DNA of 64,000 nucleotides, taken from Minisyncoccota bacterium. Its GTDB lineage: Bacteria > Patescibacteriota > Minisyncoccia > Phycocordibacterales > UBA2100. This document shows, one piece after another, positions 6,017 to 62,787 of this stretch (position 1 is the first letter of the stretch; each line of letters starts with the position of its first letter). The notes under the pieces were generated by a model, which was not told the DNA's origin, did no database searches, and was given only the letters and a program-made list of their open reading frames with translations. A program made the position numbers and the translations under genes. The stretch covers positions 199,711 to 263,710 of the forward strand of contig JALHPE010000001.1 in assembly GCA_022842645.1 (NCBI GenBank). Reading direction: 5' to 3'.

Positions 6017-8316
<2,300 letters not shown>

Positions 8317-8342
8317 TTATCGCACTCACACACAAGGAGCTA

Positions 8343-44972: not shown

Positions 44973-46172
44973 TTATGCTGTGATCTTTGTCACAACACCT
45001 GCGCCAACCGTTTTACCACCCTCGCGGATAGCAAAACGCTGCTGCTCTTCCATAGCGATTGGACCCACGAGTTTGACCTTGAAGGTAACTGTGTCGCCTG
45101 GCATAACCATCTCCACGCCCTCCTTGAGCGTCACTTCGCCCGTTACGTCCGTTGTGCGGATGTAGAACTGTGGCTTGTAACCCGTGAAGAACGGTGTGTG
45201 ACGGCCGCCTTCCTCCTTGGTGAGGATGTAGACTTCTGCGTCAAAATCAGTGTGCGGCTTAACCGTACCTGACTTCGCGAGAACCTGTCCGCGATGCACG
45301 TCTTCCTTCTTAAGGCCGCGCAGAAGAATACCTGCATTGTCGCCCGCCTGACCCTGCTGGAGGGACTTGTTGAACATTTCAACGCCGGTGACTGTTGTCT
45401 TTGCAGTGTCCTTAATACCGATGATTTCCACTTCTTCACCAACCTTCACAATACCGCGATCGATACGACCCGTAACGACGGTACCGCGACCTTCGATTGA
45501 GAAGACGTCTTCAATTGCCATGAGGAATGGCTTATCGAGCTCACGCACTGGCTCTGGAATGTATTCATCAAGTGCCTTGATGAGCTCCATCACCTTGCCG
45601 GACCATTCGTTTCCTGCCTCAGGCGCTTCAAGCGCCTTAAGACCCGAACCACGGATGATTGGTGCATTCTTTCCGTCGAAGCCCTGCTTATCAAGAAGAT
45701 CGCGCACTTCCTCCTCGACGAGATCAACGAGCTCTTTGTCGTCAACCATGTCTACCTTGTTGAGGAAGACTACAATCTTTGGCACACCCACCTGCTTTGC
45801 AAGAAGGATGTGCTCACGCGTCTGAGGCATAACGCCGTCAGTTGCTGCAACCACGAGAATAGCGCCGTCCATCTGAGCGGCACCTGTGATCATGTTCTTA
45901 ATGTAGTCGGCGTGACCTGGGGCGTCCACGTGTGCGTAGTGACGGCTTGGTGTCTCGTACTCAGAGTGCGAGAGACTAATCGTAATACCGCGCGCCTTTT
46001 CTTCTGGCGCCTTGTCGATGTCGTCCACTCCCTTGACTGACGCGCCGTAGCCGCCGCCCGCCTTCGAGAGGACGTTCAGAATCGCCGCAGTAAGCGTTGT
46101 CTTACCGTGGTCGACGTGACCAATTGTGCCGACATTTACGTGCGGCTTCGTTCGTTGAAATTCTCCTGCCAT
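44973..46172 (-). CDS. tuf: Elongation factor Tu
   Basis: 399 aa. [23 protein letters not shown]-motifs. Confidence 0.95.
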
Positions 46173-46383
46173 AAAATTAAATATGACTAATGAATAATGC
46201 GGCTTGCGCCGAGACTGTCGCCAACGCGTTGGGTGCTCCGGTACTTTCTTGCCCTACCCCCTTTGCTTTTGACGCCAGCGGATTGCTAATCCGCACAAAG
46301 GAATTTGAGCAAAGAAATACGCACAGAGCGTGCGTGAACGCATAGTATCAAAATACCCCCTCGGCGCAAGTTGAGAAGCTACG

Positions 46384-46450
46384 CGGCCTGGTGGGAAACG
46401 ACCTCCACATTGTGACCATCCGGATCGATGAGGAGGGCTGCGTCAGAACC
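46384..46450 (-). pseudogene. Duplicated 3' fragment of the VOC/glyoxalase gene (encodes ...LIDPDGHNVEVVSHQAA*)
   Basis: About 45 bp near-identical to the 3' end of the VOC gene at 47845-47900 (ctggtgggaaacgacctccacattgtgacc[a/g]tccggatcgat). Lies immediately beyond the stop of the FG-GAP gene. Confidence 0.45.
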
Positions 46451-46452
46451 CT

Positions 46453-47784
46453 TTACCACACAGAGGTATTAATAAGCACAGACATGACAGCGGCAAGGAG
46501 ATTGGCTACTACGATGTCATTTTTTCCATCGTTATTTACGTCACCGATAGATACATCCATTGGCCCACCAGCAACAGAAAAATTACGTGGCGAGTTGAAC
46601 ATCGCAGCCCCTGTCGTACTGGCGACCAGTACAGAGATAGAATTTCCGCTGAAGTTAGAAACGACAACATCAGGTATACCGTCACCGCTCACATCTCCTG
46701 CTTTCACGCGCCATGGACCAGCTCCGACTGCAAAATTCACACTCGTAGCAAAGGTTCCGTTTCCGTTGTTTCTCAGGAATGAAATGGAGTTTGAGCTATT
46801 GTTCGCAACAACGATATCAGGGCTACCGTTTGAATCGAAATCAGCGGCCGCAACCCCCATAGGATAGCTTCCCACTGAATAAGCAGTGCGTGCATTAAAT
46901 GTGCCTGGCGCGGCCACACCCCTATTAAGAAGTATTGACACTGTCGAATGTCGATATCCATCGGCCCCGACGAGATCGAGGTATCCATCAGCATTGAAAT
47001 CTGCAACTGCCACATCCATCGTAGCAGCACTTGTAGGGTAACTGACTGCAGGTGCAAAAGTACCCGGTGCTACTGCGGCGCGATTTATAAGAATGGTAAA
47101 GGGACCATTGACGTTGGCTATATCCAAGTGACCATCGGCATTGAGATCGCCAAGAGCGACCGCATTGCTTGCGCTCGCATAATTTACTCTGGTGTTAAAC
47201 GTTCCGTTCCCGATACCAGTAAGCACAGACACACTACCTGACGTCCAATTCGAAGTTACCATATCTTGTCGACCATCATTATTGATGTCACCAATCGCTA
47301 CATCCCGCGAACCAGTGCCGATGGAATAATTGACCCGCGGATGAAGGGTTCCCGGCGCACTTGCCCCCCTATTGAGGAATACTGAGATTGTTGTCGCAGA
47401 GCCTCCTGCGCCGAAATTAGGTACGGCGACATCTAGATATCCGTCACCATTAAAGTCCCCCAATTCTACTCCTTGCGAAGATATCCCCGGTGCATACGTG
47501 ACCGGTGACGCAAACGTAACATTATTCGTCCCGCACGCATTTGCCACAACACCACTCGGTGGATTTGTATAAAACGACGCCCACTCAGCAGATGAGACCG
47601 TGGGAACGTACACACTGAGCCCCGTCGTGCTGTTGTTCGTGACCCGACGACAGGTTGAGTGCGCGGTGATCGATTGGTTAGCACCGTGAGTTACTGTGGA
47701 ACTATCTGAAGCTTCGAGAAAAGCGGAAAAGCTAAAGACAATCGCGAGTGAAAGAATTATGCCCGTGAGATGGTCGCGTTGCAT
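46453..47784 (-). CDS. Secreted FG-GAP/VCBS-repeat beta-propeller protein with conserved N-terminal SDSSTV module
   Basis: Seven Dx[DN]xDGxxD repeats (DFNGDGYLDV, DINNDGRQDM, DLNADGHLDI ...). Signal peptide with cleavage at ...LEA|SDSS. Confidence 0.7.
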   Translation of the reverse strand: MQRDHLTGIILSLAIVFSFSAFLEASDSSTVTHGANQSITAHSTCRRVTNNSTTGLSVYVPTVSSAEWASFYTNPPSGVVANACGTNNVTFASPVTYAPGISSQGVELGDFNGDGYLDVAVPNFGAGGSATTISVFLNRGASAPGTLHPRVNYSIGTGSRDVAIGDINNDGRQDMVTSNWTSGSVSVLTGIGNGTFNTRVNYASASNAVALGDLNADGHLDIANVNGPFTILINRAAVAPGTFAPAVSYPTSAATMDVAVADFNADGYLDLVGADGYRHSTVSILLNRGVAAPGTFNARTAYSVGSYPMGVAAADFDSNGSPDIVVANNSSNSISFLRNNGNGTFATSVNFAVGAGPWRVKAGDVSGDGIPDVVVSNFSGNSISVLVASTTGAAMFNSPRNFSVAGGPMDVSIGDVNNDGKNDIVVANLLAAVMSVLINTSVW

Positions 47785-47836
47785 TTATCAATCATTGCAT
47801 GCGCACTGACGTCGAACTTCCCTTCATGTGAACAAC

Positions 47837-48205
47837 TTACTCTGCCTGGTGGGAAACGACCTCCACATTGTGACCGTCCGGATCGATAACGAAGGCGGCA
47901 TAGTAGTTGGGGTGATATTGCTCGCGGATTCCCGGTGCGCCGTTGTCCTTTCCGCCCGCCGCAAGAGCCGCTGTATAAAAAGCATCGACGGCTGCGCGAT
48001 TGGGTGCGGTGAATGCGAGATGGACGGGGGTGGCTACCGTGCCGATCTCACCTATCCAAAGTTCCCCCTTCCCATTTTTTCCTAAGAAACCCCAGCCTTC
48101 GCCTGAACCTATCCATGCATACCCGAGTGGCGCTAAAGCTTGTTCATAAAATGAGCGTGAGGCCGCGAAGCTCTTCACGCCGAAACCGATGTGATCAAGT
48201 GACAT
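47837..48205 (-). CDS. VOC (glyoxalase/bleomycin-resistance) family protein
   Basis: MSLDHIGFGVKSFAASRSFYE...HLAFTAPNRAAVDAFY...AFVIDPDGHNVEVVSH. Confidence 0.65.
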   Translation of the reverse strand: MSLDHIGFGVKSFAASRSFYEQALAPLGYAWIGSGEGWGFLGKNGKGELWIGEIGTVATPVHLAFTAPNRAAVDAFYTAALAAGGKDNGAPGIREQYHPNYYAAFVIDPDGHNVEVVSHQAE

Positions 48206-48284
48206 ATGAAGAGTGTAGCATTTCGTAATCAATCCTACGTTACAACAACTTACCCCGCGCTCCTGCACCTCCTTTACACAGTGA

Positions 48285-49460
48285 TTAAGGGCAACTCCCC
48301 ACTGCGCTGACATCGCAACGATTCGTAAAATCTCGAACCACTCCATCATACCCTCCGCAAATGAGCACTCTGCCATCACTGAGCGTTGATTGTTTGTGGG
48401 CACCCTTGATTTGCGGTAGTTGAGGAGAGCTCGTCCATGTGTTCGTTGCAGGATTATACGTATCACAACGATTCGTGTCTGAACTTCCACTATTCCCCCC
48501 GCATGCGATTACTCGCCCGCCCTGGAGAGTACTCATGGAAAAATGGTAACGACCCTGTGGCATGTCAGCAACCCGAGTCCATGTGTTAGTAGAAGAATTA
48601 TACACATCACATCGTGCTGATAGTGCGCCGGTATAGCCTCCACACACGAGTACGCGACCGTCAATAAGTGTTGCCGAAGCAAGGCCATGTTTCGCTTCTG
48701 GCAAATTAGCGGCTTGAGTCCACGTTCCCGTTTGTGAACTATACACATCACATCTATTTAGGTAGGTGCTTACATATCCTCCACACGCAATCATGTTTCC
48801 GTTACCGAGGAGCGCAGCTGTATGGCCAGACTTTACGGTAGGCATGGCAGCAAAAACTCCCCATGTGTTTGCTACAGGATCGTATGCTCGACAAACATTC
48901 GTATGATTTGAATTCATTGCTAAGGAACCACCACAAAGGACTACTCTGCCATCATTCATCGTCACCGAACTTTGAAGATAGAGAATTGAGCTCAAACTTG
49001 CGACTTGTGACCATGTACCGAGGGACACGTTAAACACATCGCATCGATTGGTCATAGCAAAAGAAGGACCGGTATCGGCCAAACCTCCGCACGCAAGCAC
49101 ATTTCCATTTAGCATAGTGGACTGACTAAAAAAATATTTTGCCTGCGGCAGATTTGCAGTTTGCGTCCACGAAGCAACGCATGTCTCACAGGTTCCAACA
49201 CCCACCCCGCCCGGCGGATTGGTATAAAAAGAAGTCCACTCAGCAGATGAGACTGTGGGAACGTACACACTGAGCCCCGTCGCACTGTTGTTCGTCACGT
49301 TCCTACAGGTACTGTGCGCCGTGATGCTTTGCGATCCACCGTGATTCACGGTGGAGCTGTCGGAAGCTTCGATTATAACTGCAACACTAAGGACCACCAT
49401 CGTACTCAGAAAAGCACCCACTATCCCTTTTCTCGTCATGTATTTGCTGAGTGTATCCAA
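48285..49460 (-). CDS. Secreted Kelch-like beta-propeller protein with conserved N-terminal SDSSTV module
   Basis: Repeated RCDV(Y/F)N..TNTWT...P....H units (6 blades). N-terminal 60 aa of the mature protein near-identical to 46453..47784 and 52461..53624. Confidence 0.6.
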   Translation of the reverse strand: MDTLSKYMTRKGIVGAFLSTMVVLSVAVIIEASDSSTVNHGGSQSITAHSTCRNVTNNSATGLSVYVPTVSSAEWTSFYTNPPGGVGVGTCETCVASWTQTANLPQAKYFFSQSTMLNGNVLACGGLADTGPSFAMTNRCDVFNVSLGTWSQVASLSSILYLQSSVTMNDGRVVLCGGSLAMNSNHTNVCRAYDPVANTWGVFAAMPTVKSGHTAALLGNGNMIACGGYVSTYLNRCDVYSSQTGTWTQAANLPEAKHGLASATLIDGRVLVCGGYTGALSARCDVYNSSTNTWTRVADMPQGRYHFSMSTLQGGRVIACGGNSGSSDTNRCDTYNPATNTWTSSPQLPQIKGAHKQSTLSDGRVLICGGYDGVVRDFTNRCDVSAVGSCP

Positions 49461-49466
49461 AACCGC

Positions 49467-50954
49467 CTAGCGCTCCTTCCAGACAGGAAGTGCATTTACG
49501 ACCGCAGTCTTCGTGAGGACTCCTTGATTTGATTGACAGGTAAGCGTGTATCGTACTTGCCGAGAAATTGGACTCGACAACTCGCCGCCGATCGGAGATT
49601 CAACACCAGTCCATGCATCGCCATTCGCTCCTTGTACTGTGCACGATTGCACATTTGTTGCCGACCAGTTCACACGAACCGTCTCACCTTGACGCACGAG
49701 GGACGGTACGACACGTATCGTTAGATTCGGCTCTAAAGAACCGCTGCCACCCCATACCACACCCCCGCCATTCCCTGTTATACCCCCATCGAAACCAACT
49801 ATGGCATCACCCGGAAGATTCGCATTGTTCGCACAATTAAAAGTCAAATTTGCCCACGATGAATTCCTACCTCCTTGATCTTGCGCAACGATCCCTATCG
49901 TCTTGGATCCAGAAGAGGAGAACGTTCGAGACGCCGATTGCTGGACACCTGAAGAAACATACCCCGAAGCAGGCGCCCACTCATCGATTGCGCTATCGTT
50001 ATTCCAATCGATACCGTACCTCAGAGGGTCATTATCCGCATCGGTTGCGGTGAAATTAATGGTGTGTGGAATTCCTACGACACAGGCTCCTCCAGCAGCC
50101 GAAACTGTTGGCGTGGTGGGAGCACTGCCAACGGGCTGACCGACGGTAATCTCGCAGGAACGTGTAAGGGTGGGTATGTTGATCATGAAGGGAGCGTCAT
50201 TCGCACCCCTCCCCAAAGAACTCGGATACACACTTTCCGGCGTGCATCCCGGCCCACTGGTGCGAGTGTGGCAGTATTGCGCGGTGTGATCCATCCAATA
50301 GGTGGCATTCGTCGCACCGAACATGAACGTGGGAGTGAATGTGCCTACATTCGGCGTGGTACACAGATACTCCCCATTTCCCACGCTCGTGCATCCGAGG
50401 TTTTCTGCTCCGGTCAAAGTCTTTGGCGGCGGATTCACTGAGAGCTCAGCGTACAAGTTGCCCCAGATCTTTTTTGCACGAGCGATATAGTTTTCTGGTT
50501 CGCAGATATTCACACCCGGCTCCGCGGCATTCGGCACCCACACGCCATACGGAGAATCCAGGAAGGCGCCGGTGATGAACCACGAGATATCCTGCGGCAC
50601 ATGTGGGACGAACGTGTATTTCACTTTCGTACCTGCCGGGACGGATGCGCCGCATGCAATAACCGCGCCCGTATCGGCATCAGTCACTTTCGTATGATAT
50701 TTGATAGTCACGTTCGAGCCCGAGAATCGCGGCTGCCCAGAATCGCCACTACAAGTGAGTCCCCAGACTGTCCCCCCTTCGGTCCTGTTCCATAGAATAT
50801 CGTCGCCGGTAACTGAAGAAGTCTCAGATGTCGCTATTCCTGCACCAACTCCACGCGTACCTCGCGCCTCAGTAAAAAATACGAGTACCGATAGCATGAT
50901 CAACGAGAGCCCGATGAGTCCCACAACATATCTGCCTAAAAAGAATGTACGCAT
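49467..50954 (-). CDS. Secreted hypothetical protein (possible PKD/Ig-like region)
   Basis: 495 aa with signal peptide. ...FTATDADNDPLRYGIDWNNDS resembles PKD/cadherin-like beta-sandwich motifs. Confidence 0.4.
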   Translation of the reverse strand: MRTFFLGRYVVGLIGLSLIMLSVLVFFTEARGTRGVGAGIATSETSSVTGDDILWNRTEGGTVWGLTCSGDSGQPRFSGSNVTIKYHTKVTDADTGAVIACGASVPAGTKVKYTFVPHVPQDISWFITGAFLDSPYGVWVPNAAEPGVNICEPENYIARAKKIWGNLYAELSVNPPPKTLTGAENLGCTSVGNGEYLCTTPNVGTFTPTFMFGATNATYWMDHTAQYCHTRTSGPGCTPESVYPSSLGRGANDAPFMINIPTLTRSCEITVGQPVGSAPTTPTVSAAGGACVVGIPHTINFTATDADNDPLRYGIDWNNDSAIDEWAPASGYVSSGVQQSASRTFSSSGSKTIGIVAQDQGGRNSSWANLTFNCANNANLPGDAIVGFDGGITGNGGGVVWGGSGSLEPNLTIRVVPSLVRQGETVRVNWSATNVQSCTVQGANGDAWTGVESPIGGELSSPISRQVRYTLTCQSNQGVLTKTAVVNALPVWKER

Positions 50955-50963
50955 ACGTATGTG

Positions 50964-52403
50964 TTATTGCTGCGGTGGTAGTTGATGAGATTCTGTTCGA
51001 GTAATTTTGCGAAACACCACTAACAGAAGGATGATGAGAAGAAAACTAAAAATCAACATACCGATACCATAGATCGAATCCTTTATAGAAGATAGTGGCG
51101 AGACTTTCTTGGTAGAAGCACAGAGCGTGGGGTCAATATCTGCGCAGTCATACGTGAGCAGTGCCTCATCGACGAACTCCCCTTCCTGATACAATCGCGC
51201 CGAGAGCGTCACGTAGTCATACGTCTCTCCTGGAGTGAAGAGACTTTCAACCCCCATCATCGCGCCAGATACTTCACCATCATAACGATATTCATGTATG
51301 ACCTTGCCGTCGCGATCAGTAAGGCTCAGATCGAAGCTGACATTTTCCACACTCGGTGCGCTACCGGAATTATGAAGGCACGCAAATAGTACATTCTCTT
51401 GTCCGGCTGTTATTGGAAACGTGGTGATGCCGGGAAAATTAATACGCGGAATATCTATCCCTTCACGCACGAATCGTACGCCAATGATTGATTTTGCTCC
51501 ATTCCACGAAAGCGTGCCAACAACATAGTACACAGGGTAGTTGCTATTGCTCACGACAATCTCAACATCTGTCCCCCCCTCGGGAACGATGATATCGCGG
51601 AACTCCTCATCGATTACATTCTCTCTCAGCTGCGCATCCCATCGATACACGCTCCACGAAAGCGATGCGCGCTGTGATTTGCCGAGCGTGTTGTCGATAC
51701 GAGCGCGTACAGTAACTGGCGATACCGCGTCTTTTCTTGGTGGAAATGCCGCAAAGAAATACGGCTCATTATCGATAGTTACTTTCGCCTTGTCGAATCC
51801 GAAAGTCCCGACATGTTCGCTACTGACAGTGAACGGTACGGTATTCCCCACCACATCATCAGTGAATGAAAGACCGAGAAGATTAAATTTACGGGAGGTT
51901 GTGAAGAACGTCGCAAGCTGGTACTCCCCACTGAGCGCAAATGCGGGCACCTGCCATTTAAATGACACCGGGACTGAGCCTCCCGCAGGGATGGTGATAT
52001 CGCCCTCGACCAGGAATTGATCGACGACGTCCGGTCCGAGACCGTCATTTGCTCCGCCACGCGATTTGAAAATCTTCACGTATAAGGCGCCATCGACGAT
52101 TGGATACGGATTGCTGTTGACGAGATTGCCGCTGAAAGTAATCGGTGCGCCCGAAACCGTGCCAGAGACCTCTGCGCGGATGCGTGCCTGCACGGAACCG
52201 AATGTGTAGTAGTCGAAGCACGAAACAGTGCCCGGCGGGACGACGACATCTGCGAATCCTTCATCTTCATTCGAGGCTTCGATCACGCCATTTTCAATGA
52301 ACGCAGGTGCCTGAGCGTATGCAGAAAGAGGCAACGTTATAAGACCGATCAAGAAAATTGCGGCCGTCTTCACTCCTCCCTGAGAGCGATTGAGTACGAA
52401 CAT
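50964..52403 (-). CDS. Secreted hypothetical protein with C-terminal TM anchor
   Basis: 479 aa. N-terminal signal peptide. C-terminal IGMLIFSFLLIILLLVVFRKITR anchor. Confidence 0.4.
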   Translation of the reverse strand: MFVLNRSQGGVKTAAIFLIGLITLPLSAYAQAPAFIENGVIEASNEDEGFADVVVPPGTVSCFDYYTFGSVQARIRAEVSGTVSGAPITFSGNLVNSNPYPIVDGALYVKIFKSRGGANDGLGPDVVDQFLVEGDITIPAGGSVPVSFKWQVPAFALSGEYQLATFFTTSRKFNLLGLSFTDDVVGNTVPFTVSSEHVGTFGFDKAKVTIDNEPYFFAAFPPRKDAVSPVTVRARIDNTLGKSQRASLSWSVYRWDAQLRENVIDEEFRDIIVPEGGTDVEIVVSNSNYPVYYVVGTLSWNGAKSIIGVRFVREGIDIPRINFPGITTFPITAGQENVLFACLHNSGSAPSVENVSFDLSLTDRDGKVIHEYRYDGEVSGAMMGVESLFTPGETYDYVTLSARLYQEGEFVDEALLTYDCADIDPTLCASTKKVSPLSSIKDSIYGIGMLIFSFLLIILLLVVFRKITRTESHQLPPQQ

Positions 52404-52460
52404 GATTCTATTGTATATAAAATTTACCTACCAAAACGACATATCCCCAGCGATTCTTCG

Positions 52461-53624
52461 CTACTGGTAGATGTCGCAGCGCCCGTGGATCGACATACCG
52501 CCCGAGTATCCGCCGCAGACGAGTACCGCTCCACTCGATAATGCTGCTGCTGAATACATACTCCTCGTCAGCGGATCGTTCGCCGCTTGCGTCCAGGTAT
52601 TAGTCGCAACGTTATACAGATCGCATCGATTCGTATAACTACCTGTCGTGCCTCCGCACATGAGAACCCTCCCGTCGCTGATGCGCGCTGCAGCTATACT
52701 GCCTTTCACCTGCGGGAGATTGGCTACCTGAGTCCACATATTTGTAGTTGGATTGTAGATATCGCACCGATTCGTATAGGTCGCGCTGCGACCTGGCTTC
52801 ACCGTCATACCGCCACACAAGAGCACTCGCCCATCGGTCAACGTTGCTGCACCCGGATGCGATTTTGCTTGAGGAACACCAGCCACCTGCGTCCAGGTAT
52901 TCGTTGAATAATTATAGATATCGCAACGATTCGTGAGAACGCCGGTATCGCCGGCACAATAGAGGGCTCGACCATCTAAGAGAGCGACACCTACGACACC
53001 AGCCCTCCCACCTGCAGGCACGCTGGCAACTTGCGTCCACGCGTTCGTCGGAACATCATATGTGTAGCAACTGCCGTTCGGCGATACCGCTGCCCCGCCA
53101 CAGATCAATACGCGATTGTTCCCGAGCAGTACGGCTGTCGAATATCCGAGTGGCGCCGGCATGCTCGCGACTGCAGTCCACGTGTTGCTCGTGGGATTAT
53201 ATATTTCGCAGTTGGCAATGACGCCAGAGTAGGATTGGTTCATGCCGCCGCATACAAGCGCACGCCCATCAGCAAGACCGACCAACATATGAGAAAAACG
53301 CCCCTGTACCATGTTCGCGCGCTGCGTAAACGTATTCAACCAACAGCTCCCTGCCGTCACCCCACTCGGTGGATTTGTATAAAACGACGCCCACTCGGCT
53401 GCGGTGACAGTCGGAACGTAGAGGCTTGCGCCAGTTGTGCTGTTGTTTGTCACATTGCGGCATGTCGAGTGCGCAGTGATCGCAAGGCTTCCGCCATGAT
53501 TCACGGTGGAACTGTCGGAGGCTTCGAGTACGATCGCAGAAAATGCGAGAGCAGCGAGCGTCAGTACAAGAAAGGCGAGCATCGGCCCCAGAAAGGTCCG
53601 AAGCCGTGATGCACCTAGAACCAT
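52461..53624 (-). CDS. Secreted Kelch-like beta-propeller protein with conserved N-terminal SDSSTV module
   Basis: RCDIYN.TTNMWTQVA-type blades. N-terminal module shared with the two proteins above. Confidence 0.6.
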   Translation of the reverse strand: MVLGASRLRTFLGPMLAFLVLTLAALAFSAIVLEASDSSTVNHGGSLAITAHSTCRNVTNNSTTGASLYVPTVTAAEWASFYTNPPSGVTAGSCWLNTFTQRANMVQGRFSHMLVGLADGRALVCGGMNQSYSGVIANCEIYNPTSNTWTAVASMPAPLGYSTAVLLGNNRVLICGGAAVSPNGSCYTYDVPTNAWTQVASVPAGGRAGVVGVALLDGRALYCAGDTGVLTNRCDIYNYSTNTWTQVAGVPQAKSHPGAATLTDGRVLLCGGMTVKPGRSATYTNRCDIYNPTTNMWTQVANLPQVKGSIAAARISDGRVLMCGGTTGSYTNRCDLYNVATNTWTQAANDPLTRSMYSAAALSSGAVLVCGGYSGGMSIHGRCDIYQ

Positions 53625-53626
53625 AA

Positions 53627-54175
53627 TTACATCTGAGATTTGAGGGTCTCGATGTCCGCCTTGAGCACATCTATTTCACGCTGCTGCTCTTTTACCGCCT
53701 CAATAAGAACGCCGATGAGCTGATCGTATTCGACCGACTTAAAACCATCTGCACTGGTGTGTACCGCACTGGGAAGCACGGCTTCTACCTCCTGCGCGAT
53801 GATGCCAGCGCCTTGGGTGCCGTCTTTTTTCCAATTAAATGAAACGCCACGGATTTTTTCAAGAATGGAAAGTCCCTGGAGAGGCGCAATATTCTCTTTT
53901 AAACGCGCGTCAGACGAATGAAAATATCCGAGTGCCGTTACATTATTCCCTACAGTCAATGTGCCAGTGAGCGAACTATTACCAAAAACGGCGAGCGCAT
54001 TGACTGAAAGTCCCGCATTTTTAACCTGATCTGTGGTTCCCACATTCACCGGAGGAGAGACATTACCGTTTGGCGGAGATTGTGAGGGACCCGTCCACGC
54101 CGTCACGGAAAAACCAATGGAAACGAGAGTGATGACAAGCGAGAGCACTATGCCTCGAAGCGAAAACACATACAT
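53627..54175 (-). CDS. Small secreted protein consisting of a short fibre-like segment plus peptidase S74 (intramolecular chaperone auto-processing) domain
   Basis: ...GYFHSSDARLKENIAPLQGL...FNWKKDG...VEYDQLIGVLIEAVKEQQREIDVLKADIETLK matches the S|DxRxK autocleavage site and coiled-coil of tail-fibre/endosialidase C-terminal chaperone domains. Confidence 0.55.
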   Translation of the reverse strand: MYVFSLRGIVLSLVITLVSIGFSVTAWTGPSQSPPNGNVSPPVNVGTTDQVKNAGLSVNALAVFGNSSLTGTLTVGNNVTALGYFHSSDARLKENIAPLQGLSILEKIRGVSFNWKKDGTQGAGIIAQEVEAVLPSAVHTSADGFKSVEYDQLIGVLIEAVKEQQREIDVLKADIETLKSQM

Positions 54176-54271
54176 GAGAAAAGTATATGCTCCGGGAAAT
54201 GTATGGCGACTTCTTTTGAAAGAAATCTGGGGACAAGTCTTCGCGTTTAGTTTGATTTAAAAGTGCAAAAA

Positions 54272-56428
54272 CTAAATCTCCTTCCAATCCGGCCGTCGCG
54301 ATACCGTGGCGGTTTGCGTAAGATTCCCTCCAAGACCGGTGCAGAAAAGTGTGTAGGTGGTCATACGCGTGAGCGGAGATGATGTTTCGGAACCAGAAAG
54401 CATGCTCCATAAGTCGTCGATGTCCGGATTGTCTTCTGTCACGGTGCACGAGGTTGCGCTTTGCACATTCCAGGATACGGTGACGGTGTTGTTGTAGCCG
54501 ATGAAGGAAGGAGAGACACGAAGTTCGCCGCCCGAAGCAGTGAACGGGGCGGGGGGCAGGGTGCAGGTGCCTGCGGAGCAGATGAGGCCGGTGCTACAAG
54601 CTTCTATAGGAGCATTGGTGCATGCATTCTGTCGATGTGTGCTGTCGGTGCAGACGTAGGTGGAGGCGCATGCCGGAAGCCAGGTGGTTTGCACGGGGTT
54701 TGAGCCAGCGTTGAAACTGACCCATCCTACGTTTGTGTCTCCCCACGCATAGCCTGAGAGTGTGCTACTCGCGAGTGTCGGGCCGTAGGTGGGAGATGTA
54801 CCAGAGAGACTGATGAAGCCGTCCCAACCGCCGCTTTGTGGATCGTTTGCGGAGAGCACCTTCATCCAACCCCTGAGTGCAAGATCTTCCATGCGTGCAG
54901 TGCAGGTGCCCGAGGGACATCCAAGAAGATCATTTGCACTCGCACTCACCCAGCCGACATTTGCGCTCCATGCACAGCCCGAGAATGTGCCGTCGTTTGC
55001 GATTGCGACGCCGAAGTTGCTCGCGCCACAGGTGCCAGAGTTCTGGCAGCTGAAATCGATCCATCCGATGGTGTCGCTCCAGGCGTAGCCGGTCACAGGA
55101 GTGCCTCCTGATGCAACGGTACATTGAGGAAGTGCAATGATTGCACTATCTTCGTTGGAATATGGACTGTCGCCCACTGCATTAGTGGCAACGGCGCGGT
55201 AGTAGTAGGTGGTGTTGGGTGAGGCAGTGGTGTCGTCGAAGGTGTTTACGACGCCGACTGACGTGAGGAGTGTCGTGGGATTTGAGGATGTGCCACGGTA
55301 GATCTTGTAGCCAGTGATTGCGCTGCCGCCGTTGCTTGAAGGAGTGTTCCACGTGAGAGAGATGCTGTCCGCGTCTGCGGTGGCGTTGAGGGATTGGGGG
55401 GCGGTGGGGGCTACAGAAGTGACTGACGCATAGTAAATGACGTTAGTGCGATTGGCGCCCGTAAACATACCGCCAAATAAGTACGCAAAACTACCAATGA
55501 AAGAAAATTGAGAAGACGCTAATGCTCCCGGCAAGACAGCTCCTGTATCAGTCCATACGGTCGGACTCGATACGTGAGCCCGATAAATATTATTAGAATA
55601 TACGCTGCCACCAGAGATACCACCGAGAGCGTAGACGTAGTCACCGACTACCCCGACGGCATGATGTCCAAGCGCTTTCGGAAGCACGTTCGTTTCGCGG
55701 ATCCAGCTTGTCGGATTAGATAGTGGCGCGCGATAGATCTGGTTCGTATATGCACCGCCTGAGGTATCTCCTCCGAATAGGTACACATTGCTTCCTACTA
55801 TTGCCAATCGCGATCCGGAGAGATTATTTGGCAGAGTCGCGCCTGTATTTGTCCAACTCAGCGGATTCGTAAGCGGCGCTCGGTAAATTGCACTCGTACT
55901 GACCGAAGGCCCTGTCTGGCCTCCGAATAGGTACACGTAGTCCCCGATTACGGCGGCTTGTGAAGAACCTACCACGTTCGGCAGTGTACTTCCGGTATTT
56001 GTCCAAGTCGTGGGATTAGACACCGGCGCACGATATATGACGTTGGTATACTGCAATCCCGTATATCCGCCGAAAAGATACACGTAGTCCCCGATTACCA
56101 TGGCCTGCGATGAACCGAGATTACCTGGCAATGTCGCCCCTGTATTAGTCCAACTTAGCGGGTTGGCAACTGGCGCTCGATAAATGACGTTGGTATACGA
56201 TGGAGAACCTTGCCCACCAAATAGATATATGTAATCTCCTATGGTGACGAGCTGCGAACCTCGGAGAACGCCGGGTAGTGTCCCTGGCGCAACCGTCCAC
56301 CCACCCTCATTGAGAGTCTGTGAATCTACCTTTTGTGGCTCCGCAGAAAAAGAAACAATGAATGCAATGGAAGCAAGAAGCACCAAAAGCCCAGAAACAT
56401 GGTGCGCTCGAATACTCCGTTTATTCAT
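54272..56428 (-). CDS. Secreted Kelch-like beta-propeller protein with fibronectin type III domain
   Basis: Seven YRAP(L/V)(S/T)NP..WTNTG..LP repeats, then FN3-like ...ISLTWNTPSSNGGSAITGYKIYRG...YYYRAVATN. Confidence 0.6.
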   Translation of the reverse strand: MNKRSIRAHHVSGLLVLLASIAFIVSFSAEPQKVDSQTLNEGGWTVAPGTLPGVLRGSQLVTIGDYIYLFGGQGSPSYTNVIYRAPVANPLSWTNTGATLPGNLGSSQAMVIGDYVYLFGGYTGLQYTNVIYRAPVSNPTTWTNTGSTLPNVVGSSQAAVIGDYVYLFGGQTGPSVSTSAIYRAPLTNPLSWTNTGATLPNNLSGSRLAIVGSNVYLFGGDTSGGAYTNQIYRAPLSNPTSWIRETNVLPKALGHHAVGVVGDYVYALGGISGGSVYSNNIYRAHVSSPTVWTDTGAVLPGALASSQFSFIGSFAYLFGGMFTGANRTNVIYYASVTSVAPTAPQSLNATADADSISLTWNTPSSNGGSAITGYKIYRGTSSNPTTLLTSVGVVNTFDDTTASPNTTYYYRAVATNAVGDSPYSNEDSAIIALPQCTVASGGTPVTGYAWSDTIGWIDFSCQNSGTCGASNFGVAIANDGTFSGCAWSANVGWVSASANDLLGCPSGTCTARMEDLALRGWMKVLSANDPQSGGWDGFISLSGTSPTYGPTLASSTLSGYAWGDTNVGWVSFNAGSNPVQTTWLPACASTYVCTDSTHRQNACTNAPIEACSTGLICSAGTCTLPPAPFTASGGELRVSPSFIGYNNTVTVSWNVQSATSCTVTEDNPDIDDLWSMLSGSETSSPLTRMTTYTLFCTGLGGNLTQTATVSRRPDWKEI

Positions 56429-56432
56429 ATAT

Positions 56433-56699
56433 TCACTGCGTACTCAATGACTCAAGTATGCGCAGTTTTTCTTCCTCCGAAACGTCCGCGCCAGTGGATG
56501 ATGCGCTGAGGGTCGCAAGCACTTCGGCCTTCTGCTCAACAGAATACTCAGGATTAAATATTTCGTTCGCCTCGCGTGCGCGCTCGTCTTTCATTTCAGG
56601 CTGTGTAAGCGCGATCCCCAAGGCGAGGATACCGACTGCTGCGAAGAGGACCCCTATCGCAAGTACGCGCTTTGAATTTTTATCGATATCACCTCCCAT
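56433..56699 (-). CDS. Small membrane-anchored hypothetical protein
   Basis: 88 aa, one TM helix. Confidence 0.3.
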   Translation of the reverse strand: MGGDIDKNSKRVLAIGVLFAAVGILALGIALTQPEMKDERAREANEIFNPEYSVEQKAEVLATLSASSTGADVSEEEKLRILESLSTQ

Positions 56700-56792
56700 A
56701 CGACCATAATACCGCTTTCTTAAGAAAATAATTTGTATCCTGTGTATTACTTATAAAAATGCACATCCCTCGGCTGATATACTAGATTCGTC

Positions 56793-58130
56793 ATGCGCGA
56801 CTCACGTTCTTCATACTCTCTTGATACGCGAGGGCTTGGTTTCGCGTGTAAAGCACTTTTTGCAGTTGTGCTTGTGTTTGGAGCAGTACACTACGGCACA
56901 ACACGTGCATCTGAATATCTCATTCTTTCTACAATCGATACGGCGGCACAACCCGCTGCAATAACACCAGCAGTGCAAGAAACAGTTCACCCCATCTACG
57001 ACGCACTCACTGAGTATGAACGCACACTGTCCGCGCGCACAACGGGCGTTGCAGCGTTTGACACTCTCGTTCGTGCGCGGGCGCGTATGGTGGGTATACG
57101 AGATCAAACGATATTCCTCTTCGAAAATAGTGCTGTCGGTAAGGAAATACCCTTCACAGCTCATGGCACTATACCGACGGGCCTCGCCGTAGCACATGCC
57201 CTCTCGGGCACAGACGACATATTCCCCACAATCAGCTTCCCAGGATGTGTCATAAGCGGCCCACTCCCGAAAGACAACGACACTCTCTGTGTCACACTCA
57301 CCCCAGAAGACGCCGCTCATCTCGCCGAGTTTGTCGGAGCTGGAACGCCTATTTTTGTTACCGCATCAGAGCACAAAGCCGGAACTCCACCAGAACAACC
57401 ACTCCCGCGCATCTCAGCAAAAGCATTTATTGTGGCTGATCTTGGCACGGGTACTGTATATGCCGCAAAAGACGCTGAAACGGCACGCCCTATTGCATCC
57501 ATTTCAAAACTTTTTACGGCCCTTGTTGCCCGCGAAACCATTCGCGACGACAGGACGATGACCGTAACGCGTGACGATCAGTCGCAGACGGAAGGGGTGC
57601 CCGGCTCTATTCGCGCAGGAGAAAGTTTTACAGTCGACGAGCTGCTCTACCCCCTTCTTATGGAGAGTAATAATTCCTCTGCCTACACACTCGCTCGCTA
57701 TGAAGGTACCGAGCAATTTATCGAGCGCGTCAATCAGAAAATAGGGGTGCTTGGCATGACGGCAACGAGACTTGATGACCCTTCGGGGCTCTCCCCAAAC
57801 AATGTCTCAAGCCCGAAAGATCTTGTTACCCTTCTGCGCCACATTAGCGATTATCACTCGCTCCTTTTTGAAATAACCGGAGCGCGCACCAAGGCACTCC
57901 GCGCAGAAAACGGTAGAACCTACGGCTTTTCAAACTTCAACCATTTTGCAGGCGACGAGGGATTTGTCGGTGGAAAAACAGGATTTATTGCAGAAGCAGG
58001 TCAAACCTACGCAGGTGTCTTTGAAGTTCCTAGCACAAGCGGCACGAGCACAATTGCAATTGTGGTGCTTGGGTCGGAAGATCGTAAAAAAGACTCGGCC
58101 GCTCTCCTCTCCTGGTTCCGGGAACGATAA
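56793..58130 (+). CDS. Serine-type D-Ala-D-Ala carboxypeptidase (peptidase S11, PBP5/6-like) with about 200-aa N-terminal extension
   Basis: SxxK (SISK), SxN (SNN) and KTG (KTGF) motifs in correct order. Confidence 0.75.
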   Translation: MRDSRSSYSLDTRGLGFACKALFAVVLVFGAVHYGTTRASEYLILSTIDTAAQPAAITPAVQETVHPIYDALTEYERTLSARTTGVAAFDTLVRARARMVGIRDQTIFLFENSAVGKEIPFTAHGTIPTGLAVAHALSGTDDIFPTISFPGCVISGPLPKDNDTLCVTLTPEDAAHLAEFVGAGTPIFVTASEHKAGTPPEQPLPRISAKAFIVADLGTGTVYAAKDAETARPIASISKLFTALVARETIRDDRTMTVTRDDQSQTEGVPGSIRAGESFTVDELLYPLLMESNNSSAYTLARYEGTEQFIERVNQKIGVLGMTATRLDDPSGLSPNNVSSPKDLVTLLRHISDYHSLLFEITGARTKALRAENGRTYGFSNFNHFAGDEGFVGGKTGFIAEAGQTYAGVFEVPSTSGTSTIAIVVLGSEDRKKDSAALLSWFRER

Positions 58131-58183
58131 GCAGAACACCCCGTAACCGTGTACGGGGTATTCTTATAGCAAAGCCTCCGGTG

Positions 58184-59020
58184 CTATATCTCCTGGAACT
58201 GCGGAATAATGGTGACTAACGCTTGGTCTGTCACGTTTTGTCCGTTGAATGCGGTACAGCTGAGCGTATAGGTGGTCTGCGCATTAATGATGCCTGAGGT
58301 CTTTTCTCCGGAAGTACCTTCCCATGAGTCCCCGTTGCTTCCAGTAACGGTACACGCGGTTACTTCTCGCCCCTGCCATTTAATGACCGTTGTTCCACCA
58401 CTTCGCACCAGAGCCGGCTTTGCATAGATGTTCGCGGCAATCATGCTAATCCGAAACTGAGTCAGTTGATCAAGACTGGAAGTTTGTACTGATGTATTTT
58501 CCAGTGCTGCAATGTCACTGTTCAGTGACGTGACTTCTACCGTAGGATTAGCGCATGCCGCGCCCGCATTGTATGTCGTGCGCGTTTCTTCAATCTGACA
58601 CGCCGAAGATTCAGTGATAATCTTGCCCTCTTTATACCCACTCGCACCACCCCCACCTCCAGATTGTACTTGTGAGTACCCAGCCTCACATGCTGTGCGA
58701 CGATTGAGATATTGCAAAATATGACTTGTGGTACGAGTACCCGTGTAGATTCGCTTCTCCACCTGTGTAGGTGCGCATGCCGTTGCGTTAGTAGAAGACG
58801 ATACCGTTTGCCACGCACCCCAACTGCCATTAGTACAATCGCCGTTCACCTCGATGATGTCCGTACAAATATAATCTGCATTCGCCCCCGCATTGCGCAC
58901 AATGAGAAACGAGGCGGCAATCGAAGCAAGTGCGATAATAATTGCACCCCATAGATAGAGCTTGCCGTGATGGGAAACGTCAGGTGCCTGAGAATGCATT
59001 TGTATATCTTCCATAGTCAA
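58184..59020 (-). CDS. Secreted hypothetical protein
   Basis: 278 aa, N-terminal TM/signal. No motif. Confidence 0.35.
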   Translation of the reverse strand: MTMEDIQMHSQAPDVSHHGKLYLWGAIIIALASIAASFLIVRNAGANADYICTDIIEVNGDCTNGSWGAWQTVSSSTNATACAPTQVEKRIYTGTRTTSHILQYLNRRTACEAGYSQVQSGGGGGASGYKEGKIITESSACQIEETRTTYNAGAACANPTVEVTSLNSDIAALENTSVQTSSLDQLTQFRISMIAANIYAKPALVRSGGTTVIKWQGREVTACTVTGSNGDSWEGTSGEKTSGIINAQTTYTLSCTAFNGQNVTDQALVTIIPQFQEI

Positions 59021-59036
59021 TTATATAAATGAATAA

Positions 59037-60590
59037 CTAATCATCACGCAGTGTGTAAAAAATGGTTTTGATTGTCCCCTGCGTATCGAGCACACTCACA
59101 CCTATGTTGTCCCACACCCCTCGCTTCCTATCAAACACCCAGAAGGCCGGAAAGCGCAAGAGGTTGTTGTTGATAAGAAATTCACGATCAATCGGATAGC
59201 CGCCCCCACGCGACGCTTCAACAAGAAATTGCATGTCCGCATCAGTGAGTGGTTCGTAGATTTGATCTTGATTTGCGCGCAGCGCTTCCATGTCAGCAAT
59301 CCGATAGGTCAGCATCATAGGAGCGCTCTCACGCACATGCAATTCAACACCGTCCTGTGTAAAAAACTGAATATAGGGCATACCAAATGTCTTCATAAGA
59401 TCTCCGGCGAATCCCATGACATCATCAAACGTATCAATTTGCATTAAACTCTCGGGCGGATTACCTTTCGTAAATTCATATAGGTATATATCAATCGGAC
59501 CATCGTACGGTTTTCCATCTGCATCAACAATCGCGCCCTCAGGAATCTCATAGATACTGTTCGATGTGGTGATGACGACGCCTGCCTCGGTGAAGCGATT
59601 TCCGCTACCCGTTACTGTTCGATCATCAAAATCGATACTCACAATGGTAATCGGACTTTCAAGTGCAATATCCCCAATACTCACTGTTTTGACACCCGTA
59701 GCAAGAAGAATTGCGTCCGCATAACCGTCTGAATAATTCCGTTTCGAGGCTCGAACTCGTAGCTTTTCCATTTGCATAGCCCCCGTAGGAATTGAGTAGA
59801 TACCGTCTTTGTTGGAAAGAACAGGTTGCACACCTGCACGACTCACAATTTCCACTGTTGCCCCAGCAATCGGAAGACCATTCGTATCAACGACCCGCCC
59901 CGTTGCAGTAATTTCAGACGCATTCTCGCACCTCACCCTGAAGCGCGTACAATTTTCCTGATTCAAACGATCGCGTTTCGCATAATTTCCTTCAAGTTCG
60001 TACAGATAGCTGAGTTCAAAAAGTTCTTCTGAAGAAGCTCTTCCTGCGCGCATCTTCTCAAGGAGCACATTTTTCATGTCGAGCGTGGTGAGTCCGGTTG
60101 AGCCAAAAGCGTAAATTGCGTTATGAAACTGAAGCTCTTCTGGCAATTCAACATCTGAGACAGTGCGCATAAGGTTTCTTTGTGTAACACGAGACTTGCC
60201 TACCACTTCGGCAAGCTGACGAAGTTCGTCGTCTGAGATACCAGCACGAGCAAGTGCGTCCGGGTCAAAGTAGAGCACGTGTTCGTTCCCCTCTGCGTCA
60301 GTATAGGTGTACCAAAAACCATTTACGATGGTTGTTTTATCAATGCCCACATCAGTAAACGCATTGGTGAATCGCTCGCGCTCACGAGCGATTGATTCTA
60401 ATTCGACTCGCGCCGCCTGATTTATTTGAATAATGTTCGCATAACGAACAGCACCAATCACAAAGCCCGCGGAGAGTATGAGGAGTGCGAAGATAAGAAA
60501 CGGCCGCAGCGTCTGACGCGGCGTCTGACGCGGCGCCATACGATCGCGCATATACTCAGGAACAGCTTCTGGTTCAATCTGAGGATCCAT
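59037..60590 (-). CDS. Membrane-anchored hypothetical protein with carboxypeptidase-regulatory-like beta-sandwich segment
   Basis: N-terminal TM. ...ITATGRVVDTNGLPIAGATVEIV is CarboxypepD_reg-like. Confidence 0.4.
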   Translation of the reverse strand: MDPQIEPEAVPEYMRDRMAPRQTPRQTLRPFLIFALLILSAGFVIGAVRYANIIQINQAARVELESIARERERFTNAFTDVGIDKTTIVNGFWYTYTDAEGNEHVLYFDPDALARAGISDDELRQLAEVVGKSRVTQRNLMRTVSDVELPEELQFHNAIYAFGSTGLTTLDMKNVLLEKMRAGRASSEELFELSYLYELEGNYAKRDRLNQENCTRFRVRCENASEITATGRVVDTNGLPIAGATVEIVSRAGVQPVLSNKDGIYSIPTGAMQMEKLRVRASKRNYSDGYADAILLATGVKTVSIGDIALESPITIVSIDFDDRTVTGSGNRFTEAGVVITTSNSIYEIPEGAIVDADGKPYDGPIDIYLYEFTKGNPPESLMQIDTFDDVMGFAGDLMKTFGMPYIQFFTQDGVELHVRESAPMMLTYRIADMEALRANQDQIYEPLTDADMQFLVEASRGGGYPIDREFLINNNLLRFPAFWVFDRKRGVWDNIGVSVLDTQGTIKTIFYTLRDD

Positions 60591-60645
60591 CGAACCTCAT
60601 ACTAACATGTACTACTGCGCACGATTTCATGCGCATGCCGCAAAA

Positions 60646-62787
60646 TTATTTACGCGATGCAATTACCTCATCTGCCACGTTGCGCGGAACGACAGCGTAG
60701 TGTGAGAACTCAAGGTTTGGTACTGCGCGACCTTCGGTGAGGGAGCGGAGTTGTGTAGTGTAACCGAAGAGTTCTGAAAGCGGTACTTTTGCGACGACAA
60801 CACGTGCCTGACCACGTTCACCCATTGATTCAATGAGACCACGCTTTGCGTTGATGGAGCCTGTCACGTCGCCCAAGAATTTCTCTGGCGTAACAACCTC
60901 AAGCTTCATGACTGGCTCGAGAAGAACCGGCTTCGCCTGCTTCATCGCTTCCTGCATCGCGTTTATTGCGGCGAGCTTGAAGGCGATTTCTGAGGAGTCC
61001 ACATCGTGCGCGGAGCCGTCGTAAAGGTCGACGGAAATATCAACAACTGGGAATCCAGCGAGAACCCCACGATCCATTGCCTCCTTGAGACCCTTTTTGA
61101 TTGGGGAAATAAATTCTGCTGGGATAACGCCTCCTTTGATGTTGTTCACGAATTCAAAGTGGTCTTCACGGTCAACATTGTTCTTCACCTTTTCACCCTC
61201 TACAACTGGCTCGAGTGGCTTCATGCGAATCTTCACGTGACCATACTGACCGCGACCACCCGTCTGCTTGATGTGCTTGTATTCAACATCCGCGGTGCCC
61301 TGAATCGTTTCGCGGAAGGCAACCTGCGGCTTCCCTGTCGTTGCTTCCACCCCGAACTCGCGCTTCATGCGATCGACGAGAATTTCGAGGTGAAGCTCAC
61401 CCATCCCGGAGATAATGGTCTCACCCGTTTCTTCATCGGATTTAACGCGGAACGTTGGATCTTCGTCGGAAAGACGCGAAAGTGCGATACCGAGCTTCTC
61501 CTGATCAGCCTTTGTCTTTGGCTCGACGCGCATGGAAATAACAGGTGTTGGGAAGACAATGGATTCAAGCGCGATCGGGTGATCGCCGTCGCAAACGGTG
61601 TTACCAATCTTCACCTCCTTCATGCCAACGAATGCAGCGATTTCTCCTGCAAAGACTTCCTCCACTTCCTCGCGCTTGTCTGCCTGGAGGCGGACGATGC
61701 GTCCCACACGCTCCTTCTTATTGTTCGCTGAGTTGTAGACAGTGTCACCCGCTTTGACTGAGCCGGAATAGACGCGGAAGAAGGTGAGAGCACCCACGAA
61801 CGGATCGACTTGGAGTTTGAAGACGAGCGCTGCAAATGGACCATCATCTTTTGCGGGACGAGTTTCCTCTGCGCCGGTGTCAGTATTGATGCCCGTTGCC
61901 GCTGGAAGGTCGAGTGGCGACGGAAGGTAGTCGACAACCGCATCGAGGACGAGTTGCACACCCTTGTTCTTGAGCGAGGAACCCGTGAGAACTGGGAAGA
62001 TTTCATTCTTGATAACCGCCTTGCGAAGATTTGCCTTCAACACATCAAGTGGAATCTCCTTCCCTTCGAGGTAGTCGTTCATGAGCTTCTCATCGTTTTC
62101 CACGATACGCTCGACGAGTTCGGCATGGTACTTCTTTGCGTCTTCCATCATCTCTGCTGGAATGTCATAGGCAATAACCTCCTTACCCATTTCGCCTTCA
62201 AACTTGTAGGCTTTCATCGAGAGAAGATCGACAACGCCGTTGAAGTCTCCTTCTGCGCCGATTGGAATCTGGAGACGAACTGCCTTTGTGGAAAGTCGCT
62301 CGAGGATGGAAGCGTATGACTTCTCAAAGCTTGCACCGGTGCGGTCGAGCTTGTTGATATAGCAAATGCGGGGCACTTCCGCTTCTTCAGCGTATCTCCA
62401 GTTGGTTTCAGACTGTGGCTCCACACCAGCAACGCCGTCGAAGACGACGACTGCGCCGTCGAGAACGCGCATCGAACGCTTCACTTCCGATGTGAAGTCG
62501 ATATGTCCTGGAGTGTCGATAACGTTAAAGCGTACTTTCTGGGAGATGTCGGTACCCATGTAGGTTGGGTTCCAGAAACAAGTAATAGCGGCGGCGGTGA
62601 TGGTGATGCCACGCTCGCGCTCCTGTTCCATCCAGTCGGTCACCGTTGCACCGTCGTGCACTTCACCGATTTTGTGGCTCATTCCGGTATAGAAAAGGAT
62701 ACGCTCAGACGTGGTGGTCTTCCCAGCGTCCACGTGGGCGACGATACCGAAGTTGCGGACTTTTTCGAGAGGATAATCGCGGCTCAT
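60646..62787 (-). CDS. fusA: Elongation factor G
   Basis: 713 aa. [21 protein letters not shown] and domains II-V. Confidence 0.95.

Follow-up and report, generated by a model that had tools for sequence, protein, structure and literature searches.

A constant N-terminal module with exchangeable heads, encoded behind Peptidase_S74 fibre genes in a Minisyncoccota bacterium and elsewhere, is a candidate docking domain

Why should three secreted proteins with different heads, encoded within 7 kb of one another, all begin with nearly the same short module? The question is raised by a stretch of 64,000 nucleotides (nt) from a Minisyncoccota bacterium (NCBI GenBank assembly GCA_022842645.1, contig JALHPE010000001.1, positions 199,711 to 263,710 of the forward strand), which is the window of this study and to which coordinates refer unless another locus is named. 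Three module genes lie on its minus strand, as the original prediction had reported: p1 (46453..47784), p2 (48285..49460, with a likely true start at the ATG at 49439, MTRKG...) and p3 (52461..53624). Each encodes a predicted signal peptide, the module and a C-terminal head, the module occupying 47533-47709 (residues 26-84) in p1, 49188-49364 (residues 33-91) in p2 and 53343-53519 (residues 36-94) in p3, whose predicted signal peptide lies at 53520-53624. Past a hydrophobic leader ending in ..LEA or ..IEA, and directly after the predicted signal-peptidase cut (..LEA/SD), every copy follows the pattern SDSSTV..H..ITAHSTCR.VTNNS.TG.S.YVPTV..AEW.SFYTNPP.GV....C, so that the prediction of one module at the mature N-terminus holds; pairwise amino acid (aa) identity is 78-81% over 59 aa (tblastn E ~1e-28), and a six-frame search of the window found no fourth copy. 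The heads are ordinary members of the Kelch and FG-GAP propeller families, as had also been proposed. The p1 head has seven FG-GAP repeats (PF13517, E 4.9e-54; FG-GAP_3 181.2 bits against a cut-off of 26.9, 7 matched stretches), and p2 and p3 end in Kelch propellers (PF01344, E 1e-32 and 5e-28; Kelch_1 111.7 and 96.8 bits against a cut-off of 20.1), which are homologous to each other and just 38% identical. Pfam matches in p3 cover the Kelch head only and none falls over the module.

Our proposal, to which we give about an even chance of being right, is that the module serves as a docking domain, joining exchangeable heads to what the upstream Peptidase_S74 fibre gene encodes. The module would form the mature N-terminus of secreted proteins and act as a constant dock or adaptor, with exchangeable heads for ligand binding placed behind it. 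As its partner the likeliest candidate would be the trimeric fibre protein encoded by the gene upstream, which a C-terminal Peptidase_S74 chaperone/autoprotease would mature. Since the modules of the three proteins are nearly equal and belong to one cluster, all three heads could be displayed on the same partner. Such an assembly would correspond, on a cell, to the phage gp37 fibre and its gp38 adhesin, where the fibre gene comes first, the adhesin is a protein of its own, and a conserved N-terminal domain of the adhesin binds the fibre and a C-terminal domain sets specificity; the role of the assembly would be to attach one cell to another in an episymbiotic or predatory way of life. We favor this reading because the gene order is tight and widely conserved in both directions of sampling, because the module stands strictly at the mature N-terminus, because it is under strong purifying selection while the heads diverge or are replaced, and because the envelopes of the lineages that carry it are so different that they are unlikely to share a ligand.

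The closest link between module and fibre in the window is the junction of p3 with the gene ahead of it (53627..54175, minus strand), which encodes a 182-aa 'mini-fibre' with a Peptidase_S74 domain (PF13884, E 2.3e-16); the ATG of p3 follows the mini-fibre stop codon after 2 nt (TAA-TT-ATG). The mini-fibre has a predicted signal peptide (..SVTA/WTGP), a mature part of ~60 aa, the motif SDARLK (S88..K93), the S74 domain and a coiled-coil-like C-terminal tail; by its sequence, SDARLK corresponds to the SDxxxK autocleavage motif of the Peptidase_S74 intramolecular chaperone. Its relatives number 934 at E<=1e-10, some of them named 'tail fiber domain-containing protein' in Candidatus Parcubacteria / Paceibacterota.

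The arrangement recurs well beyond the window. Pattern scans from a six-sequence module alignment gave 10 loci from genomes, 27 from metagenomes and 1 from IMG/VR, which were searched locally with a module hidden Markov model (HMM) and S74 queries, using code 25 where UGA was read through, and dereplicated at 90% module identity to 28 informative locus groups. An open reading frame (ORF) with an S74 domain ends 63-242 nt ahead of the module domain, on the same strand, in 22/28 of these module-sampled loci, a spacing that leaves room for only a signal peptide between the S74 ORF and the module. Sampling in reverse, from eight mini-fibre relatives (32-67% identity) picked only by how long their contigs were, placed a module gene immediately downstream in 6/8 and as the second gene in 1/8, with none in the remaining 1/8; a module gene thus lies within two genes of the fibre gene in 7/8 fibre-sampled loci. 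Two or three module genes stand in tandem behind one fibre gene at five loci (L005, L023, L025, L026 and L034), and the S74 fibre genes themselves span 'mini-fibres' of 170-320 aa to proteins of 1,000-1,950 aa. The source records are labelled Bdellovibrio bacteriovorus, two 'Proteobacteria' metagenome-assembled genomes (MAGs), Parcubacteria, Gracilibacteria and Peribacteria; one further MAG (L004) is labelled archaeon UBA583, an archaeal identity that could not be checked from the neighbouring genes.

Several observations weigh against docking to a fibre, and some of them are what would be expected if the module instead anchored the heads to the surface of the producing cell (its cell wall, S-layer or type IV pilus) without any fibre, the S74 linkage then reflecting co-regulation of adhesins in a surface-protein operon. 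Six of the 28 module-sampled loci have no S74 neighbour; the genes upstream of the module there encode AspRS, a transposase, a pilB-pilB-RR-pilC series (L035, where RR is a response regulator), a Gly-rich protein (L016) and, in two cases (L001 and L002), fibre-like proteins with C1q-like repeats and no detected S74 domain. Within the window, p1 and p2 are not adjacent to the fibre gene and lie 3-6 kb further along the same cluster. Module sequences do not co-vary with the 40 aa that precede the S74 cleavage site (Mantel test, rho 0.03, p 0.38), and their co-variation with the adjacent S74 domain is modest (rho 0.30, p 0.005); the latter may be explained by linkage alone, or the module could contact the chaperone domain instead of the fibre tip. 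The absent S74 neighbours, with the one module gene behind pilus genes, the separation of p1 and p2 from the fibre gene and the lack of co-variation with the fibre tip would all suit an own-surface anchor, as would a pilin-like N-terminus on the S74 fibre of one locus (L038). Two further points tell against the fibre as partner on other grounds. The mature mini-fibre, at ~60 aa, has no obvious cell anchor, and the module bears no likeness to the N-terminal domain of gp38: its profile, run against all PDB sequences, gave a best E of 0.93 to unrelated proteins, and a Foldseek search of its predicted structure against the PDB and BFVD returned nothing below E 0.8, the PDB structures searched including that of gp38.

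We nonetheless consider the own-surface anchor unlikely. The envelopes of the Gram-negative predator Bdellovibrio, of lineages of the candidate phyla radiation (CPR) and of archaea differ, and a shared envelope ligand is unlikely across Bdellovibrio, CPR bacteria and an archaeon-labelled MAG, whereas the fibre gene alone travels with the module. Adjacency within a few nucleotides in 22/28 and 7/8 loci of very divergent sequence also exceeds what co-regulation usually produces. Attachment of the heads to a common anchor had been part of the original prediction; the fold, the size and head diversity of the family and the linkage to S74 genes speak for it, and attachment to a fibre in particular is what the gene order suggests.

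Some of the sampled loci show arrangements of interest in their own right. In L035 (1595-8576) the module gene stands directly behind a type IV pilus-like cluster in place of an S74 gene, made up of two PilB-like ATPases, a response regulator and a PilC-like protein, all named from sequence only. Just upstream of the module genes of L001 (9645-9929) and L002 (9636-9920) is an ORF of ~95 aa with a module-like motif, C.R[VI].N.S.G.VYL..., which may be a very divergent stand-alone copy of the module; in L001 the fibre-like genes with C1q-like repeats lie further upstream of it. In L038 (5201-7941) the S74 fibre gene with the pilin-like N-terminus (..RG/SVFTMMMATVAMVG) is preceded, just upstream and in divergent orientation, by a serine recombinase/resolvase gene with an HTH_7 domain, and the module protein downstream carries He_PIG and Lcl_C domains. 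Although the contig comes from IMG/VR, a viral origin was rejected, its neighbours (the resolvase, ArdA, two Fic genes and TraG) pointing to a conjugative element. In L046 a mini-fibre and its two module genes are followed by genes for a DsbA/thioredoxin-like protein and a T2SS-E/PilB-type ATPase (7581-8714), and the DsbA-like protein, a putative disulfide oxidoreductase, may be relevant to the two conserved cysteines of the module.

Is the module a domain at all, or could it be a long leader? A word-indexed protein search with the module returned only 1-2 matches. When a three-copy profile was run exhaustively with HMMER against 1.84 billion cluster representatives, 815 of them matched at E<=1e-3 and 172 at E<=1e-10, with the window proteins at the top of the 815 hits; the window proteins score E ~1e-30 against the module profile. 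The module thus occurs widely outside the window, fused behind a signal peptide to many unrelated heads. The family follows the pattern C..N...VPT...EW..F...P.GV....C over ~60 residues, to which all three window proteins conform; N25, E42, W43 and C59 are invariant and C20, P36, T37, F46, P51 and G53 nearly so. The module begins between residues 20 and 39, immediately behind the signal peptide, in 120/151 of the best hits; exceptions in position are a protein with two tandem modules (P0033) and one with an internal module at residue 323 (P0115). AlphaFold2 with a 109-sequence alignment predicts a compact domain with high confidence (pLDDT 91.6, pTM 0.74), in which strands 4-6, 11-16, 19-25 and 33-35 are followed by helix 40-48 and strand 54-58; a single-sequence prediction of the whole Kelch protein was uninformative, with pLDDT <40 for the module. 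By this predicted fold the module is a real structural domain and not just a long leader, and C20 and C59 could form a disulfide.

These data bear on the proposal that the module is a pro-domain or an export or folding helper, removed or idle after secretion, which we regard as very unlikely. Its place directly behind the signal peptide and the conservation of the mature N-terminus (SD../DSY..) are what such a role would produce. Against it stand an autonomous fold predicted with confidence, the two conserved cysteines and the tandem and internal copies, and there is no conserved processing site after the module, where C59 is conserved and the sequences then diverge. Heads of unrelated folds are unlikely to need one and the same folding helper, and the linkage to fibre genes would be left unexplained. 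Removal of the shared region as a pro-peptide with no structural domain of its own, a possibility attached to the original prediction, is judged improbable on the predicted fold and the tandem and internal copies, and is rejected less firmly than an artefact of assembly, to which we return below.

No model in Pfam, NCBIfam or PHROGs covers the module, either in the window proteins or in 109-150 of their relatives, and the module is a candidate for a new domain family, without an entry in the copies of Pfam, NCBIfam, PHROG or the PDB that were searched. In the databases and papers searched there appears to be no description of the family, of how large it is or of how systematically it is paired with S74 fibre genes in CPR-like and predatory bacteria; a constant anchor with variable heads is a concept already known.

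The heads that follow the module differ greatly from protein to protein. Among 150 members, the matches were Gly_rich_2 (12), Kelch (11), RCC1 (9), Lcl_C (5), Laminin_G_3 (3), GP38 (3) and Fibrinogen_C (2), together with LVIVD, DUF6242 and FG-GAP, and many of the members had no Pfam match in their C-terminal part. By their family assignments these fused domains are typical ligand-binding or adhesin heads. The heads encoded directly behind fibre genes vary from locus to locus; in relatives that keep the block of genes seen in the window (L011, L013, L015 and L041), similarity to the window module genes ends at about residue 85-97 and the heads differ.

The module might itself be a small ligand-binding domain, for example one that binds glycans, adding a common specificity to every head. 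It is small and extracellular, it has two cysteines that are conserved and a Glu-Trp pair and an Asn that do not vary, and many carbohydrate-binding modules are of about the size of this ~60-residue module. It resembles none of the known binding modules by sequence or fold, and a binding function would give no reason for its strict N-terminal position or its linkage to fibre genes; we think this explanation no less doubtful than a pro-domain.

The selective history of the three window copies sets the constant part of these proteins apart from the variable part. The original prediction had described near-identical DNA shared by the three genes, and this does not hold: nt identity across the 177-nt module is 70-74%, no more than 26-32 of the 59 codons match at their third position, and a direct-repeat search gave 72-73% identity over 204 nt. 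The repeat coordinates given with that claim were off by ~10-45 nt from the real module. Synonymous divergence (dS) between the modules is 0.99-2.06, with dN/dS, the ratio of nonsynonymous to synonymous divergence, of 0.09-0.19; the longest exact nt runs between copies are 28, 35 and 14 nt, and the core of the p1-p2 module pair has a lower dS of 0.48. In comparison with other loci the window modules are mutually 76-79% identical, against <=71% to any other locus, and are thus each other's closest relatives. Because the amino acid sequence has been kept while synonymous sites diverged, the three copies are old paralogues under purifying selection on the amino acid sequence, not collapsed repeats or products of recent conversion, and the module has remained 78-81% identical while the two Kelch heads stand at 38%.

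That the similarity is an artefact of assembly (collapsed or chimeric repeats) or of recent gene conversion can be dismissed as next to impossible, since, for all that three copies lie in 7 kb, share exact runs of 28 and 35 nt and, given the p1-p2 core dS, may have undergone limited old conversion or a later duplication, they differ at more than a quarter of their positions with dS of 1-2, independent Logan assemblies (13 samples from other sequencing runs) recover 53367-54670, across the p3 module, at 100% identity, and the same domain occurs on hundreds of unrelated contigs. One Logan contig stops exactly at the 35-nt run common to two module copies, which is the break expected of a de Bruijn graph at a real repeat.

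The setting of the genes suggests how the heads came to differ. Their surface-protein cluster (46177-60645) sits between the genes for EF-G (fusA, 60646-62787) and EF-Tu (tuf, 44973-46172), which are normally adjacent in the str operon. Because the same placement is seen at two other loci, L043 with a mini-fibre and a module gene between fusA and tuf, and L041 with a mini-fibre followed by one module gene, whose head is glycine-rich, ahead of tuf, the cluster is, as far as gene order shows, a lineage-conserved island, expanded in the window to three module genes against the single ones of L041 and L043. Downstream of p2, and part of the unit that was duplicated, is a gene of the VOC/glyoxalase family (47837..48205, minus strand, 122 aa, PF00903). 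Directly downstream of p1, on the same strand, lies a 63-nt remnant of a VOC 3' end (46379..46441; ..LIDPDGHNVEVVSHQAA followed by the stop), and a direct repeat, D4, pairs this remnant with the end of the intact VOC gene (46367-46441 and 47825-47899, 83% identity). This remnant beside p1 therefore indicates that a unit of module-Kelch gene and VOC gene was duplicated and its interior then replaced by an FG-GAP head, an order that the lower p1-p2 core dS fits.

The original prediction had further proposed that the DNA repeats serve as substrates for cassette shuffling. One past head replacement is visible in the VOC remnant, so that head exchange at this locus is documented as history; the present copies, with 70-74% nt identity and saturated synonymous divergence, are poor substrates for homologous recombination and too diverged for it to be efficient.

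The gene ahead of the mini-fibre (54272..56428, minus strand) encodes a 718-aa secreted protein with an N-terminal Kelch region, fn3, GxAWSxxxGW repeats and a C-terminal domain of ~85 aa (Pfam), and L011, L013 and L015 keep a three-gene block of its homologue, a mini-fibre and a module gene. Conservation of the 718-aa protein at these loci extends over residues 330-718 only (fn3, the GxAWSxxxGW repeats and the C-terminal domain) and not over the N-terminal Kelch region. Just upstream of the mini-fibre, this protein thus has a layout that mirrors that of the module proteins, with a variable N-terminal head and a constant C-terminal part; in L047 a GW-repeat protein stands behind the mini-fibre in place of the module gene.

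Two more genes of the cluster, both on the minus strand, lie between p2 and p3. The first (49467..50954), between the two module genes, encodes a 495-aa secreted protein without a Pfam or NCBIfam match, and the second (50964..52403) a 479-aa protein without a family match that begins with a signal peptide and has a hydrophobic segment at its C-terminus. Common to the C-termini of the 495-aa and 718-aa proteins is a domain of ~85 aa (49467-49730 and 54272-54530; 41% identity, E 2e-13), which ends in P.WKE and in L013 and L015 also closes ORFs; this domain may be another constant part of the cluster, possibly with an anchoring role.

How does the proposed docking domain compare with systems in which a constant part and a variable part are already known? 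In the phages that have it, the gp38 gene adjoins the fibre gene. The gp38 protein binds the fibre tip through an N-terminal attachment domain, and its glycine-rich C-terminal domain sets specificity (PMC3157838); the gp37/gp38 pair occurs in Straboviridae of the T2, T6 and S16 type (PMC3157838, PMC12032242). On the docking reading the module proteins would resemble this pair in being small, separate adhesins, conserved at the N-terminus for attachment and variable at the C-terminus for specificity. The order of the genes is analogous, and a glycine-rich head is the commonest in the family (Gly_rich_2 in 12/150), with the GP38 Pfam model matching 3/150. The module differs in having no sequence or fold similarity to solved structures, and its proteins in carrying Sec signal peptides, being encoded in cellular genomes and having heads that are mostly propellers, lectin-like or fibrinogen-like, behind a fibre that carries its own S74 chaperone. 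In the window proteins themselves there is no GP38 Pfam hit, and the heads are Kelch and FG-GAP and not glycine-rich.

A cellular parallel is provided by the mosaic adhesive trimers (MAT) of Bdellovibrio, phage-like trimeric fibres of the cell surface that act in prey recognition (Caulton et al. 2024, PMC10769870). In strain HD100, 13/21 MAT fibres end in an autoproteolytic S74 domain with the SDxxxK motif (PMC10769870). At the B. bacteriovorus Bd5 locus two module genes with fibrinogen-like motifs in their sequence (YCDMTTDGGGWT) come directly behind the gene for a 1382-aa protein, apparently of the S74-type MAT kind described in PMC10769870, that ends in an S74 domain. Besides this neighbourhood, the module family and the MAT share the logic of a constant part with swapped tips. 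The module proteins, by contrast, lack the ~130-aa MAT N-domain and any fibre shaft, and the window fibre is a 182-aa miniature; read from its sequence, without a comparison to the MAT N-domain itself, the ~60 residues between its predicted signal cut and its S74 cleavage site leave no place for a MAT N-domain or shaft. On these comparisons of sequence the module proteins are neither gp38 homologues nor MAT fibres. A term search of the main text of PMC10769870 found no downstream, operon or accessory partner genes, and the literature searched, with incomplete coverage, held nothing relevant on S74 or tail-fibre-like proteins in CPR bacteria or on partners downstream of MAT fibres.

Dockerin-cohesin pairs, SLH domains and cell-wall-binding repeats are alike in principle, a small constant domain directing varied functional domains to a common scaffold. 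The difference from these systems is that there is no homology, that the module is N-terminal with two conserved cysteines and that the proposed scaffold is the product of a fibre gene; the sole Dockerin_1 match is weak and falls in L027, at residues 326-342 of the module protein, within its FG-GAP head and outside the module. The window heads belong among the Kelch and FG-GAP surface proteins, of which the N-terminal module, here the part that is conserved and most telling, is no component.

Taken at its widest, the docking reading would make the module a widespread dock that plugs interchangeable receptor-binding heads onto S74-matured fibres or released chaperone hubs. Dock and fibre would make up an adhesion apparatus of two components and phage-like kind, which a number of lineages share and seem to have passed on horizontally; these are labelled as CPR bacteria, Bdellovibrio-type predators and an archaeal MAG, with a conjugative-element-like contig besides. 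We advance this wider proposal tentatively, with rather less than even confidence. If it is true, the downstream genes for module and head, and not the fibre gene alone, would specify the range of targets. It bears on how ultrasmall CPR episymbionts and predators such as Bdellovibrio recognise and hold host or prey cells, and on what else decorates or anchors MAT fibres, a point left open by the work on them. An easily recognised 60-residue tag marks hundreds of secreted proteins, which offers a way of listing candidate host-recognition proteins in uncultured genomes, and the scheme gives a testable hypothesis for how specificity diversifies, by swapping or adding heads while keeping the dock. 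If the contact between module and fibre is real, it could also be a natural plug-in scaffold for the display of binding domains.

Away from the cluster, no tRNA or rRNA was detected in the window, which does contain a group I catalytic intron at 2959-3222 on the minus strand (RF00028, 69.8 bits, a full-length match to the model). A gene on the same strand (20700-23486) encodes a protein of 928 aa whose domains are of the TraG/TrwB coupling-protein type, which hints that another part of the window holds an element related to conjugation or type IV secretion.

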